From Eubacteriales bacterium (lineage in GTDB: Bacteria; Bacillota; Clostridia; Oscillospirales; CAG-382): DNA of 64,000 nt. Shown here in pieces: positions 5,103 to 44,875 of this stretch (position 1 is its first letter; each line of letters begins with the position of its first letter). Below the pieces are notes generated by a model that saw only the letters and a list, made by a program, of their open reading frames with translations, ran no database searches and was not told the DNA's origin. Location: positions 5,628 through 69,627 of the forward strand of contig JAZSQJ010000070.1 in NCBI GenBank assembly GCA_045537905.1, in the 5' to 3' direction. The translations under genes were made by a program, and so were the position numbers.

Positions 5103-6692
5103 ATGAAACGCATTTTCACTTTACTGCTTTGTATGACCCTTTGTTTTAGTTTTCTGGCTGTTCCTGCCGTTTTTGAAGCAGGTGCCGCTACCAGCACCAG
5201 CGTTTACGTGATTTGTGCCAACCCCGGCGAAAACTGCGATACGGAAATAGGCATTAGCTGGCACTCTGATTTCGATTGCACCGCTTGCTTCGTGGAATAT
5301 AAGCCTGCCTCTGAAAGCGGCTGGGACAACGTTACCACCGTTGCGGGTACCTATAACGATACCGATTATAAGTATTTTTTAGGTAACACCTTTGCAACCT
5401 CTGCTGCAGAGCCTGTTTTTTCCGAGGAGCATAAGTTTTTGAATTACGGTGCAGACCTTACAGGACTTAAGCCTGCAACCAGATACAAGTACCGCATAGG
5501 CGACGGTAAGGGCAGCTATTCCTCTACCCGTTATTTCAAGACCTCCGGTGCGGAGGAGTACAGCTTTGTTTGGATAAGCGACTTCCATACATACTCCCCT
5601 CTCGGCGGCAGACTTTCTGCGGCAACAAATGCAGTAGCATACGCAGCAAGCCAGTCCACCAACGGTATCGATATGATTTTCAGCACGGGTGATACCGTAG
5701 CATACGGCGGCAGCCACTATTTTTGGAAACAGCTTTATAACGTGAATTGGATAAAAAACTATCTGTATCTTGACCTTAACGGCAACCACGATAATATGAA
5801 CAATACGGATAGCAACAACACCTTCAACTATTTCCGTACCACCCACAACAACCCCGAAAACTGCTTCCTTGGGGACAGCACTACCCCCTACGAGCCCGGT
5901 GTTGTTTATTACACCCTTTATAACGATATTCTTTGGTTCTTCTTTGATAACGAAACTATGAACGCTACCGTCCGTGCACAGCTTCAGGACTGGGCAGGTA
6001 AGGTTATCGAGGAAATGGAAGGCAAATATAAGTATTTGTTTATTTCCGAGCATTATCAGTGGTTTAGCGGCAACACAGGTGCCGACAGCCATTACGGTAA
6101 CTGGTCAGATTTTTGTGACAAGTACGGTGTTGATATTGCCTTTGCAGGTAACAACCACATTTATGCCCGCACCCATAGACTTTACGACGGTGCTGTAGTT
6201 GACGCTGATGCCGACAAGGGTACATATTACATCCAAGCCGCTTCTTCCGACTGCGAAAGAGGTACCACGGGTACGCTTGTAGAGCCTGCAACCTATAACA
6301 ACGATATACTTGCTTACCGTTATAAGAATACGGCTGACCCTGCACGCACCCACGGCGTTTCTCTTATAAGCGTAACGAAAGAGGGCATTACCTTAAAGAT
6401 GTTTGCCTCCGAGAACAAGAGCCAGTCCGCACCTGCCTTTGAGCTTAAGGACGAGGTATTTATTACCCCCAAGCGTGCAGACGTGGATAAGGGCTACGAA
6501 ACAGGTACCAAGGGCGATGCCAACGGCGACGGCAAGGTTAACAACCTTGACGCTACCGAGATACTTAAGTATGACGCAGGCATTACCAACTCTATCCCTT
6601 CCGTTGCAGACGTAAACTCCGACACCAAGGTTAACAACCTTGATGCTACCGAGGTACTTAAGTACGATGCAGGCATTATAAACGGCTTCTAA
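5103..6692 (+). CDS. Secreted calcineurin-like metallophosphoesterase with C-terminal dockerin
   Basis: Signal peptide. Phosphoesterase motifs WISDFH, TGDTVAYGG, LNGNHD, FISEHY, AGNNHIY. The C-terminus has duplicated Ca-binding segments GDANGDGKVNNLDATEILKYDAG and DVNSDTKVNNLDATEVLKYDAG (dockerin type). Confidence 0.8.
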   Translation: MKRIFTLLLCMTLCFSFLAVPAVFEAGAATSTSVYVICANPGENCDTEIGISWHSDFDCTACFVEYKPASESGWDNVTTVAGTYNDTDYKYFLGNTFATSAAEPVFSEEHKFLNYGADLTGLKPATRYKYRIGDGKGSYSSTRYFKTSGAEEYSFVWISDFHTYSPLGGRLSAATNAVAYAASQSTNGIDMIFSTGDTVAYGGSHYFWKQLYNVNWIKNYLYLDLNGNHDNMNNTDSNNTFNYFRTTHNNPENCFLGDSTTPYEPGVVYYTLYNDILWFFFDNETMNATVRAQLQDWAGKVIEEMEGKYKYLFISEHYQWFSGNTGADSHYGNWSDFCDKYGVDIAFAGNNHIYARTHRLYDGAVVDADADKGTYYIQAASSDCERGTTGTLVEPATYNNDILAYRYKNTADPARTHGVSLISVTKEGITLKMFASENKSQSAPAFELKDEVFITPKRADVDKGYETGTKGDANGDGKVNNLDATEILKYDAGITNSIPSVADVNSDTKVNNLDATEVLKYDAGIINGF

Positions 6693-12859: not shown

Positions 12860-13396
12860 ATGCCTATGTCCAAGGACGGCGGTGGTTTGAAAAACCTTGC
12901 GGTTTTATTTGTGCTATGCTTTATACTTTATCTATGGATAAGAAAAAGCTGTCCCGATGCGGAAAACATCGGGGCGTATATCAGGGAGGATTGGTGTATA
13001 TCAATCCTTTGCTCCCTTGCGATTATTGCTTTGAAATGCTTTGTTGTGATGCCTACCACCGTTTGTTTTATTATATTTGGGTATTTACTGCCCACGGCAG
13101 TTGCTTTTTTGATGTGCCTGCTTTGCGTGGCGGTGCTGTTTACTGCATCATATTACAGGGGAAAGAAAAGCGACGGCGCCAAGGTAGGGGGCATACTGAT
13201 AAAAAAGGATAAGGCAGGAGTGTTTTTGACTGCCCTCAGCCTTAACTGCTTACGTTTTTTTGGCTTAGGTGTTACGGGAAGCTTGTTTGGAAAGGTAGGG
13301 GCTCCTTACACAGCGGCGTTGCTTGGTACTATCCTTGGTATACTGCCTACCATTGCCCTTTCCCTATCGCTGACAGGCTTTCTACCTATAGCGTAG
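12860..13396 (+). CDS. Polytopic membrane protein, function unknown
   Basis: 178 aa with 4-5 hydrophobic helices; no motif recognised with confidence. Confidence 0.5.
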   Translation: MPMSKDGGGLKNLAVLFVLCFILYLWIRKSCPDAENIGAYIREDWCISILCSLAIIALKCFVVMPTTVCFIIFGYLLPTAVAFLMCLLCVAVLFTASYYRGKKSDGAKVGGILIKKDKAGVFLTALSLNCLRFFGLGVTGSLFGKVGAPYTAALLGTILGILPTIALSLSLTGFLPIA

Positions 13397-13412
13397 ACCC
13401 TCTAAAACAGAA

Positions 13413-13438
13413 GAAGAGGTGGCATAAGCCACCTCTTC
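13413..13438. repeat. Left copy of the duplicated terminator hairpin flanking element copy A
   Basis: gaagaggtggcataagccacctcttc. Identical over 25 nt to 13661-13685, but not followed by a T-run. Confidence 0.8.
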
Positions 13439-13660
13439 AGACCGCTGACAAAGGCACAGAGCACGAAAAAGAATAAAACATACTCATTCTAAAGTAGAAA
13501 ATTCAGGGAAAATTTTCCTGAATTTTCTGCATTTTATTTGTTTTTTCGTTCAAAACGAACCTCGGCTCACAGTACTTAGTACAGTTTTCCCCTCGGTTCG
13601 TCTTGCCTGCACTCTTTCTCAGCACTCTGCCAGCTTGATGACAAGATTTGTCATCAAGCT
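13439..13660 (+). repeat. 222-bp ORF-less structured intergenic element, copy A (MITE-like)
   Basis: About nine-tenths identical (by eye) to the reverse complement of 31394-31614. Contains a 14-bp stem agaaaattcaggga/ttcctgaattttct (13495-13529) followed by attttatttgtttttt. Also contains a GTACTTAGTAC palindrome (13572-13582) and a terminal 13-bp hairpin agcttgatgacaa-gat-ttgtcatcaagct (13632-13660). Confidence 0.8.
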
Positions 13661-13690
13661 GAAGAGGTGGCATAAGCCACCTCTTTTTTG
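13661..13690 (+). terminator. Right copy of the duplicated hairpin, retaining the T-run (functional terminator of the upstream membrane-protein gene)
   Basis: gaagaggtggc-ataa-gccacctctt followed by ttttttg. Confidence 0.7.
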
Positions 13691-13724
13691 CTTATTTATT
13701 TAATTTAATAAATTCGCAAATCAG

Positions 13725-13997
13725 TTACTGCTTCTGAGCTGCAAAGCACTCACTGCAGTACACGGGTCTGTCATCAGAAGGCTTAAAGGGAACCTTAGCT
13801 TCATTACCGCAGTTAGCGCAAGTGGTAGTGAAGTATTCCTTAGGACCTCTGGCAGCGTTCTTCTTAGCGTCACGGCAAGCCTTGCAACGCTGGGGCTCGT
13901 TCTGGAAGCCACGCTCAGCGTAAAAAGCCTGTTCACCTGCGGAAAATACGAACTCTGCGCCGCATTCTTTGCAAACCAATGTCTTGTCTTCGTACAT
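13725..13997 (-). CDS. Small zinc-ribbon protein (four CxxC pairs; zf-trcl-like)
   Basis: The likely start is ATG 13997 after GAGGT (the ORF track extends to 14051). CKECGAEFVFSAGEQAFYAERGF...RCKACRD...CANCGNE...CSECF. Confidence 0.7.
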   Translation of the reverse strand: MYEDKTLVCKECGAEFVFSAGEQAFYAERGFQNEPQRCKACRDAKKNAARGPKEYFTTTCANCGNEAKVPFKPSDDRPVYCSECFAAQKQ

Positions 13998-31368: not shown

Positions 31369-31392
31369 AGGAGTTGCAACACTGCAACTCCT
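31369..31392. repeat. Left copy of the duplicated terminator hairpin flanking element copy B
   Basis: aggagttgcaacactgcaactcct. It matches 31616-31639 except for one loop base and is not followed by a T-run. Confidence 0.8.
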
Positions 31393-31393
31393 C

Positions 31394-31614
31394 AGCTTGA
31401 TGACAAACCTTGTCATCAAGCTGGCAGAGCGCTGAGAAAGAGTGCAGACAAGACGAACCGAGGCGATAACTGTACTAAGTACTGTGAGCCGAGGTTCATT
31501 TTGAACGTAAAAACAAATAAAATGCAGAAAATTCAGGGAAGGCATCCCTGAATTTTCTACTTTAATATAATTGTATTTTGTTTTTTTCGTGTTCTGTGCC
31601 TTTGTCAGCGGTCT
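31394..31614 (-). repeat. 221-bp ORF-less structured intergenic element, copy B (inverted relative to copy A)
   Basis: Its reverse complement aligns end to end with 13439-13660. Differences cluster in an AT-rich patch and in hairpin loops (aaatt versus tgcct; gat versus ggt) while the stems are preserved. Confidence 0.8.
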
Positions 31615-31648
31615 GAGGAGTTGCAACACCGCAACTCCTTTCTGTTTT
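31615..31648 (+). terminator. Right copy of the duplicated hairpin with T-rich tail (terminator of the XRE gene)
   Basis: gaggagttgc-aacacc-gcaactcctt followed by tctgtttt. Confidence 0.6.
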
Positions 31649-43315: not shown

Positions 43316-43392
43316 TAATAAACCGTATTCCTTATGTTTTATCTTTATTTTGGGTGCAATTCTTTTGTGCTGCGTTTAGGACCGTCGAGGAC

Positions 43393-44691
43393 TGTATAGT
43401 ATGGTAGGATTGTTTACAGAATGTACGGGAGGATTGTTTACAGTTTTATGATAAAATAGAAGGCAATAAAATACAAAAAAAGGAAGTGTTTTAATGCCGT
43501 GGGAGAATAAAACTGTGGAAAAATTAAGGAAAGAATTCATTCAAAAAGCAATCCAAAAAGAAACGAGCATAAGTGCTTTATGCAGGGAATACGGAATAAG
43601 CAGACCTACCGGGTACAAGTGGATAGAGCGTTTCAAAAGTGGCGAGGGTCTCAGCGACAAATCTCATGAAGCGCTGTTTAAGCCGAGAAAAACGCCCATA
43701 GAAAAAGAAGAACTAATCGTATATACCAGACTGGAGCATCCCACTTGGGGACCCAGGAAGCTCAAACGGTTTCTGTATAACAAGGGATATGACAACCTTC
43801 CTGCTACCAGTACCATAGCAGATATTTTAAGACGCAACGATTTCATATCCCTCGAAGCCTCTGAGGCTCACACTCCGTGGAAAAGGTTTCAAAAGGATAC
43901 CCCTAACGATATGTGGCAAATGGATTTCAAAGGGAATTTCGGTTTGCTTGACGGAACAAGGTGTTTTCCTCTTACCATCTTAGACGATTATTCTCGCTAT
44001 TCACTTTGTGTAAACGCAATGAGTAATGAGCAGTGGATACCAACAAAAGCCTGCTTAGAAGGCGTTTTTAGAGAATACGGGCTGCCTTTTTCCATGCTAT
44101 GCGATAACGGAAACCCTTGGGGTAGTAACTGTGTAGGCTACACCTTGTTCGATGTATGGATGATGCAACTCGACGTGCTGCCAATTCACGGAAGAAGATT
44201 GCATCCTCAAACGCAAGGCAAGGAAGAACGGTTTCACAGGACGCTAAAGGAAGACGTACTCAAAAGAACGGTGTTAAGGGATATGAAACACGCCCAACAG
44301 GAATTTGACAGGTTTAGATATTGCTACAACCATGAAAGACCCCACGAAGCTCTGAATTTAGATGTACCCGCTAAACATTACAAAGCCAGTAAACGCCCAT
44401 ACATAAAAACCCCTAAAGAGCCGGAGTATGATAGCGGGAAGCAATTAAGAAAAGTAAATTACAAGGGCTATATATCTATCAATTGCTACAGGTATTATTT
44501 AGGTGAAAGCTTTATAGATAAGTATCTGGAAATTGTTTCGGAGGATGAGAAAAACCTCAATCTTTGCTATGGCAAATTTGCCATAGCAAAGATTGATACA
44601 GAACAGAAGCTAATTGTTTCTAAAAAGATTTACCGTAGGTAAATGTGTAAACAATCCTCCCGAACAAAGTGTAAACAATCCGTACTTGACA
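43393..44691 (+). mobile_element. IS481-family insertion sequence (1299 bp) with 6-bp target-site duplication
   Basis: TGT...ACA termini and imperfect ~25-bp IRs. GGATTGTTTACA is present twice at each end. The direct repeat GAGGAC lies at 43387-43392 and 44692-44697. Single transposase ORF. Confidence 0.85.
43494..44642 (+). CDS. IS481-family DDE transposase (HTH + rve integrase core)
   Basis: N-terminal HTH (ISALCREYGISRPTGYKW); WQMDFKG, LTILDDYSRY, DNGNPW, HPQTQGKEERFHRTLKE. Confidence 0.9.
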   Translation: MPWENKTVEKLRKEFIQKAIQKETSISALCREYGISRPTGYKWIERFKSGEGLSDKSHEALFKPRKTPIEKEELIVYTRLEHPTWGPRKLKRFLYNKGYDNLPATSTIADILRRNDFISLEASEAHTPWKRFQKDTPNDMWQMDFKGNFGLLDGTRCFPLTILDDYSRYSLCVNAMSNEQWIPTKACLEGVFREYGLPFSMLCDNGNPWGSNCVGYTLFDVWMMQLDVLPIHGRRLHPQTQGKEERFHRTLKEDVLKRTVLRDMKHAQQEFDRFRYCYNHERPHEALNLDVPAKHYKASKRPYIKTPKEPEYDSGKQLRKVNYKGYISINCYRYYLGESFIDKYLEIVSEDEKNLNLCYGKFAIAKIDTEQKLIVSKKIYRR

Positions 44692-44875
44692 GAGGACGCC
44701 GGTCCCTACAAGGTGCTACCCCTTACGCCCCATAAAAACCGTAACGCCGTCCTTAGCTGTACCACGGTGCTATTCGCCACGCCATATTATAACCCATTAC
44801 GGCGTGCAAAGCGTCACGCTCCCATCATAACCCCAAGGCGGTGTGCAAAGGGGCAATTAAATAATCACCTGAGGC

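Follow-up and report, generated by a model that had tools for sequence, protein, structure and literature searches.

A probable MITE-like DNA transposon of ruminant and gut Clostridia that lies between duplicated terminator hairpins

The window, by which we mean the whole 64-kb stretch of DNA that was analysed, carries two copies of a small element among ordinary chromosomal genes, which include those for a small membrane protein, a zinc-ribbon protein, a sigma factor, RmlA and PNPase. Copy A (13438-13661, plus strand) is 224 bp long, runs from CAGACC to CAAGCTG and sits exactly between two copies of the stem-loop AAGAGGTGGCATAAGCCACCTCTT. In the left hairpin (13414-13437), CAGACC follows directly on the 3' side, the plus-strand T-run is absent and the minus-strand terminator is kept; the right, duplicated hairpin (13662-13685) is followed by the original T-run (13686-13689). 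A G present at both 13413 and 13661 extends the hairpin match to 25 nt. Copy B (31393-31615, minus strand) is 223 bp long and 90% identical to copy A. The hairpin adjoining its CAGACC end (31616-31639) reads AGGAGTTGCGGTGTTGCAACTCCT on the minus strand, while the one adjoining its other end (31369-31392) reads AGGAGTTGCAGTGTTGCAACTCCT, with one difference in the loop, and is followed by GATTTTTA; the two share the form AGGAGTTGC[G/A]GTGTTGCAACTCCT, which is unrelated to the copy A hairpin. A preliminary description of this DNA had already placed a core of about 222 bp exactly between duplicated terminator hairpins, with a T-run on the right only, and had seen it recur in inverted orientation between copies of a different hairpin; both observations hold, within the slightly wider limits given here. 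Outside copies A and B, the element termini had no match in the window, and shuffled sequences likewise gave 0 matches.

The sole ORF in copy A (56 amino acids, minus strand) is not conserved among copies, and the longest ATG-initiated ORF is of 17 amino acids or fewer in most of them, in keeping with the earlier statement that the element encodes no protein. From predicted transcription, the 3' untranslated region (UTR) of the gene at 13725-13997 should span the whole of copy A. Terminator scoring picked out an internal hairpin with its T-run (P3, see below) and, of the outer hairpins, the right one on the plus strand and the left one on the minus strand. Because the outer hairpins and P3 score in this way, termination of both flanking genes is predicted to survive the insertion.

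A consensus fold built on 35 well-aligned copies comprises six main helices, P1 to P6. P1 closes the element by pairing its left end (13438-13454) with a segment just before the terminal hairpin (13606-13629), and P2 pairs an A-run with a T-run. P3 (13494-13530, preceded by an A-run and followed by a T-run, to 13546) is a hypervariable, terminator-like hairpin that is bidirectional, and 11 of its 15 pairs show compensatory changes. The conserved core (13551-13605), which is the part best kept in distant relatives, consists of P4 (CAAAACGAACC paired with GGTTCGTCTTG) around P5, a GTAC-loop-GTAC hairpin. P6 (13631-13661) is a perfect 31-nt hairpin at the right terminus in which three pairs covary.

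The six-helix fold had z scores of -10.8 on the plus strand and -14.3 on the minus strand. Compensatory double changes were found in 19 of 74 pairs, located in P3, P4, P5 and P6; paired cells made up 97.8% of the alignment, compared with 93.3% in shuffles and about 42% when partners were slid, and double-change cells numbered 128 versus 38 in shuffles. The preliminary description had noted three structures and proposed a covariance analysis of the stems: its structures correspond to P3 with the T-run, P5 (the GTAC hairpin) and P6, all of which fall within the six covarying helices. G-U outnumbered A-C on the CAGACC strand in P1-P3 only, with no consistent strand preference in P4-P6; because the bias is confined in this manner, these counts were rejected as a sign of a single functional strand.

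A 17-nt motif occurs four times in the element, in the arrangement direct, inverted, direct, inverted. The first copy, CAGACCGCTGACAAAGG (13438-13454), forms both the left terminal inverted repeat and the 5' strand of P1 and is invariant in the 35 copies; the second, inverted, lies in the 3' strand of P1 and matches the first at 13 to 14 of 17 positions. The remaining two are the arms of P6 (direct, then inverted), each with 11 of 17 matches, and the last of them constitutes the right terminal inverted repeat, such that CAGACCGCTGACAAAGG agrees with the reverse complement of the right terminus at 11 of 17 positions. The chance of a match of at least 11/17 was P ~7e-4. The element thus has terminal inverted repeats of its own, with termini CAG...CTG/TTG, contrary to what had first been supposed.

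In a species-representative genome collection, more than 92 stretches match the 20-nt 5' end of the element. They come from at least 10 assemblies, and all of the matches listed belong to metagenome-assembled genomes (MAGs) of ruminant or gut Clostridia/Oscillospiraceae. Among the matches listed there were 95 occurrences, of which 50 were complete, 36 were cut by the ends of contigs or loci, and 9 lacked a recognisable 3' end nearby; several of these 9 are internally truncated, and an nhmmer scan added further truncated copies. Complete copies measure 221-226 bp, or 245-310 bp when small nested inserts are present. The 5' end had 0 matches in viral contigs, a pattern for the 3' hairpin had 0 matches in metagenome and viral collections, and plasmids and phages gave no meaningful match. 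The element is mobile: copies at different loci of the same genome are up to 99.6% identical and several subfamilies coexist within one genome, which points to recent activity of the family.

A number of side observations concern these loci as assembled. Many copies lie exactly at contig ends. Left and right hairpins are clearly different in L015, L029, L062 and L069 (also L016 and L086), where recombination between copies, or chimeric MAG contigs joined via the repeat, could be responsible. Several copies (L034 5369-5461, L044, L058, L068 and L040) have one or two units of a 36-nt, hairpin-forming mini-repeat, GGGGTCCCCGTTGCGAACGAAGTGAGCAATGGGGTG, nested in them; this mini-repeat also adjoins some terminators, near L053 and L059, and is a further small repeat family of these genomes.

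The duplication seen in the window proved to be general. A locus-specific stem-loop is directly duplicated, with at most one mismatch, in 31 of about 42 scorable complete copies, and in all 31 the offset is zero, with CAG directly adjoining the duplication at one end of the element and the last base of P6 at the other. The duplicated stem-loops are 20-35 bp long and every one is different, while about five copies carry unrelated hairpins on the left and right. Duplication lengths were compared with those of unoccupied terminator-like hairpins in the same DNA, and both had a median of 24 (Mann-Whitney p = 0.39); the length therefore tracks the local hairpin, and no fixed ruler is at work. The duplication begins with A and ends with T, each in 27 of 30 cases. 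A U-tract is present on at least one strand in 28 of 31 targets; six have a T-run only and four an A-run only, and it follows that the element enters terminators in both orientations. Whether other copies would have duplicated host hairpins had been named beforehand as a test, and 31 further copies do, each with its own. Together with the more than 92 stretches, hairpin duplication at dozens of loci bears out the initial view of an ORF-less, non-autonomous element that targets hairpins. A segmental duplication that included the hairpins is ruled out, since the hairpins at dozens of independent loci are unrelated.

Orthologous intergenic sites are occupied in different species, in the same orientation in five pairs (L031/L053, L020/L027, L002/L014, L046/L087 and L034/L053) and in opposite orientations in three (L025/L082, L023/L051 and L022/L029). 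Between species the hairpins at these sites are unrelated, and each genome has its own in perfect duplicate. This is most simply read as insertion that happened repeatedly and independently, into whichever terminator was present; where orientations are opposite, in-situ inversion via the palindromic flanks may be an alternative. Window copy B and L088 likewise have the element at an orthologous intergenic site. An all-against-all comparison of loci yielded only occupied orthologous sites and no empty ones, exact searches with the proteins of three neighbouring genes gave no match in a collection that lacks the genome of the window, and no tandem hairpins of the kind expected as excision footprints were seen. 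A scan for inserts of 0.1-7 kb between duplicated hairpins returned the element family only, plus two false leads: the insert at L073 holds ordinary genes, and an 18-nt "hairpin" direct repeat at 6533-6643 of the window, with 75 bp between its copies, is a dockerin-type coding repeat within ORF 5103-6692.

Departures from this simple layout are few. In four copies (L048, L060, L078 and L080) the loop of one flanking hairpin is inverted, so that the two hairpins share a stem, differ by a flipped loop and are exact reverse complements of each other; the P6 loop also occurs in two orientations among near-identical copies (L007, L013, L023 and L029). Two truncated copies, L022 (95-260) and L041 (5735-5881, minus strand), are broken within the GTAC hairpin P5 and retain the target-hairpin duplication. 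The L041 duplication is 35 nt long, as it includes 13 nt upstream of the hairpin, and TACA microhomology is present at the junction; given this extension and microhomology, a simple later deletion cannot be its origin.

We consider that the element is probably a non-autonomous DNA transposon, MITE-like and about 224 bp long, whose ends would be joined by an enzyme acting in trans at the feet of an extruded hairpin, with duplication of the stem-loop. Its size (221-226 bp), the lack of a transposase gene, the many dispersed copies, the terminal inverted repeats and the presence of a target duplication all agree with the usual description of a MITE, the duplication being atypical in that it is 20-35 bp long and comprises a whole hairpin. 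Neither an autonomous IS with the same ends nor any other transposase or partner with matching ends was found in the 64-kb window and about 560 kb of loci, and scanning for the 17-nt motif outside the known copies gave nothing usable. A PHROG screen of 103 ORFs gave no partner among the 25 of 51 families listed. Multi-copy ORFs considered as candidates reflected orthologous neighbourhoods, and the sole transposase gene of the window (43494-44642) is part of an unrelated IS whose ends are TGT..ACA.

Our preferred reading, which draws on the comparisons below, is that the MITE would be mobilised in trans by an IS1182-like, structure-directed DDE transposase. Such an enzyme would bind the 17-nt motif at the left end, in inverted form near the right end and in the head-to-head pair that makes up P6, and would recognise its target by shape, accepting any stem-loop palindrome and in practice intrinsic terminators. 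[quoted passage not shown] Joining in this way would leave the hairpin copy of each strand single-stranded, and gap repair would then produce one complete hairpin on each side, giving a duplication of exactly the length of the local hairpin. Because the feet of an extruded palindrome lie side by side at any stem length, one joining geometry could yield duplications of variable length, whereas a transposase with a fixed stagger cannot produce duplications of 20-35 bp that always match the stem-loop. P3 as a bidirectional terminator, and the U-run kept by each outer hairpin, would preserve termination of both neighbours; insertions would therefore be nearly neutral, and a high copy number would become possible. 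Ends in ...CA-3' are common to many DDE elements, and the CAG...CTG/TTG termini found here count against a DDE enzyme in this respect.

The closest likeness is to IS1272 and TnSha1 of staphylococci (IS1182 family, DDE), which target terminator hairpins by structure, with any sequence and in both orientations; these targets vary in size and are mostly Rho-independent terminators just downstream of genes (PMC4923244, PMC5678879). The element shares with them a stem-loop target of any sequence or size, breakpoints at the feet of the hairpin and insertion in both orientations, and it resembles IS1272L and TnSha1 in that one end carries the terminal inverted repeat more than once (PMC4923244, PMC5678879). 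Unlike IS1272, which is 1.9 kb long, encodes its own transposase and deletes the hairpin without any duplication, the element is 224 bp long and duplicates the hairpin completely, and its hosts are Oscillospiraceae-type Clostridia rather than staphylococci. In terms of the IS1182 family, therefore, structure-specific, sequence-independent insertion in both orientations is found in the element, and the known outcomes of insertion (deletion of the hairpin, as in IS1272, or a 4-bp duplication, as in ISPse1 and MITEPye1) are not. It is by target choice that we liken the element to IS1272, and membership of the candidate enzyme in the IS1182 family is what this likeness would suggest. Direct repeats of 0-60 bp are given for that family in IS reviews.

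Duplication of a whole stem-loop has been drawn as a possibility. In pathway b of Fig. 13 of Wan et al. 2017 (PMC5678879), 3' ends are joined at the 5' feet of a cruciform and the entire stem-loop is duplicated; it was put forward there as a hypothetical alternative to the stem-loop deletion seen for IS1272, with no natural example. The prediction of pathway b (PMC5678879) matches 31 junction pairs here and appears to be the rule for the whole element family. Hence the assertion in the preliminary description that such a duplication is not what known DDE families leave was too strong, given hairpin targeting by IS1272 and TnSha1 and the existence of pathway b (PMC4923244, PMC5678879). The family would supply dozens of natural examples for what had been no more than a hypothetical pathway for IS1272. 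As far as the searched literature shows, a family of transposons that target structure and duplicate a complete terminator hairpin, whatever its length, appears to be undescribed in nature; if confirmed, it would be the first known natural family of transposable elements in which the secondary structure of the DNA, and no fixed stagger, determines the target duplication.

Other known systems agree with the element less well. Classical bacterial MITEs, namely Correia, RUP, ERIC and MITEPye1 (IS1182 family), are likewise small, non-coding, multicopy and intergenic, with terminal inverted repeats, long stem-loops and often regulatory signals; unlike here, their duplications are 2-10 bp and of fixed length. 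To our knowledge, no classical bacterial MITE has been reported to duplicate a complete hairpin of variable length. The target duplication of MITEPye1 is 4 bp (PMC11578231). Unusually long duplications in the same size range occur in a subgroup of the IS1202 family (27-28 bp for IS1202 and ISSeq2; 16-17 bp for others; PMC10132070). That family differs in having a duplication length fixed for each IS, 5'-TGT...ACA-3' ends and no reported target structure (PMC10132070), and it is ruled out by the CAG...CTG/TTG ends and by the spread of 20-35 bp within one family of elements. Group IIC introns are described (PMC1702495) as homing just after intrinsic-terminator stem-loops that are recognised as structures, a targeting like that seen here. 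Unlike the element, they are ribozyme retroelements of 0.6-2 kb with a single insertion orientation, and they leave the hairpin unduplicated; they were rejected because no Rfam or group II match was found, both orientations occur and the hairpin is duplicated. REP, BIME and REPIN repeats were set aside, as the flanking hairpins are locus-specific and mutually unrelated and do not represent one repeated unit. PATEs derived from IS200/IS605 insert 3' of a fixed tetra- or pentanucleotide without target duplication; they too were rejected, since long duplications are present here and the only shared feature of the targets is the A...T at the feet of the hairpin.

The truncated copies that are nevertheless duplicated, and the flipped loops in the flanks and in P6, are not predicted by cut-and-paste transposition with simple gap filling. 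L022, L041 and the loop flips give a hint of a copying or fold-back step, which they fit better than simple cut-and-paste. There is accordingly a modest chance that the enzyme or mechanism is new: a transposase or integrase that reads hairpin geometry only, or replicative copy-in from the hairpin feet through hairpin-ended intermediates. If true, this would be a new class of structure-guided, sequence-independent DNA insertion, and its copy-in version would explain both the truncated-but-duplicated copies and the flip/flop loops.

Copy-in as a specific route, which we regard as unlikely, would start from nicks at the 3' feet whose 3'-OH ends prime a copy of the element, made on a DNA or RNA template as in target-primed synthesis or template switching; synthesis would begin at the CAGACC end and finally jump back to before the hairpin, of which two copies would thus be made. 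The CAGACC end is retained in every internally truncated copy, as this route would have it, but that polarity is biased because the loci were retrieved by their 5' end. L022 and L041, broken in P5 and still duplicated (L041 with its 35 nt and TACA microhomology), speak for it, although they are the only truncated copies with a duplication and the others look like later deletions. Flip/flop loops in the flanking hairpins and in P6 are what fold-back or hairpin-ended intermediates would be expected to leave, and P6, as a perfect hairpin at the very 3' terminus, could self-prime. Against this, the mid-element terminator P3 is predicted on both strands and disfavours a full-length RNA intermediate, and no signal of a reverse transcriptase or group II ribozyme was found.

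It is quite improbable, in our estimation, that the element is in the first place a functional RNA module, such as a 3'-UTR structure or a small RNA, in which covariation would reflect selection for RNA function and spread and duplication would be secondary. The compensatory changes in P3, P4, P5 and P6 are compatible with this, as are the retention of the P4/P5 core in very distant relatives, even alone at the tip of a hairpin (L098), the excess of G-U over A-C in P1-P3 on the CAGACC strand, and the position of copy A wholly within a predicted 3' UTR. The window gave 0 matches to Rfam 15 at the gathering score, however, and a sensitive scan of 13300-13800 reached at best 21.8 bits against a threshold of 56 bits, so that known RNA families were rejected; no conserved promoter was seen in the element. 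Since both orientations of insertion occur, the same strand is not consistently transcribed, and the exact junctions and duplicated hairpins would be left unexplained. A role as RNA is compatible with mobility, and the two are not exclusive. The earlier suggestion of an RNA module that spreads by terminator capture nonetheless found no support, in view of the same lack of an Rfam family and a conserved promoter, of the terminator that lies mid-element on both strands and of the occurrence of both orientations relative to transcription.

We find it very doubtful that P6 is recombined with a terminator hairpin folded on the lagging-strand template by a recombinase or nuclease that recognises structure in folded single-stranded DNA, be it like the integron enzyme IntI or of the HUH type known from IS200/IS605 and IS91. 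The target is indeed set by fold and not by sequence, the strong covarying structure suggests a single-stranded form, and the layout of target hairpin, element and own terminal hairpin is the one that a single-strand exchange of the attC x attC type would leave. Conservative or single-strand recombination, however, makes no second full hairpin, which 31 copies have; apart from A...T the targets hold no conserved core site such as R boxes or a target tetranucleotide, genes for an integrase or an HUH enzyme were not seen, and the strand comparison of G-U and A-C showed no consistent preference in P4-P6. An integron cassette was likewise rejected as the identity of the element. The slimmest chance falls to a casposase-like, Cas1-type integrase that would attack both borders of a palindromic unit and so duplicate it: Cas1-Cas2 is drawn to palindromic or cruciform DNA and CRISPR spacer acquisition likewise duplicates a whole palindromic unit around the insert, but casposon and CRISPR duplications are fixed by the enzyme or the repeat whereas here length follows each hairpin, neither a cas1 gene nor a CRISPR repeat turned up in the window, and the element loci gave no evidence of casposons.

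Returning to the MITE-like transposon that we favour, its mode of insertion would amount to a near-harmless colonisation of compact genomes, in which the element lands only in terminators, restores one on each side and brings a spare. The duplicated terminators may alter 3' UTRs. The repeats also break MAG assemblies, as seen from copies at contig ends and contigs with mismatched flanks. An enzyme that inserts DNA at hairpins of whatever sequence could find use as a tool.

Diverged relatives of the element were also encountered. One, with approximate limits ~1590-1866 of the window (minus strand), has the P4/P5 core and an internal terminator-like hairpin together with different ends, and shows no simple hairpin duplication. 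It lies directly after the stop codon of ORF 1871-2854 and is flanked by GATGTAAAAAT direct repeats, and a unit of about 95 nt (5' part, hairpin and T-run) is repeated, in diverged form, on both sides of it. Further diverged relatives lie at L038 1645-1793 and L067 1115-1239, both on the minus strand. A degenerate scan for the core revealed GC-rich, distant relatives in other metagenomes (L093 4433-4660 and L094 ~6195-6420, the latter on the minus strand) that are built in the same way, with CAGTCTGTCGAAAAAGG ends, a terminator inside, the GTAC core and a hairpin at the terminus. L093, too, is bracketed by duplicated copies of a local hairpin, and its terminal inverted repeats agree at 12 of 17 positions by manual count. 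At L098 (8166-8229), the core occurs by itself and forms the tip of a long terminator-like hairpin that lies downstream of a pgk-like gene.

A separate hairpin-directed insertion, the second in the window, is a 1.3-kb IS at 43393-44691 (plus strand) that encodes a transposase with HTH_32, rve and rve_3 domains (ORF 43494-44642) and whose ends, TGT...ACA, each contain two GGATTGTTTACA repeats. Its insertion site is the loop of a REP-like palindrome, GGACCGTC-GAGGAC-GCCGGTCC, of which exactly the 6-nt loop is duplicated (43387-43392 and 44692-44697); in this the insertion resembles pathway c of the IS1272 model. The same REP-like palindrome is present uninterrupted at 1487-1508 of the window as GGACCGTCGAGGACGCCAGTCC, the equivalent of an empty site for the target of this IS.
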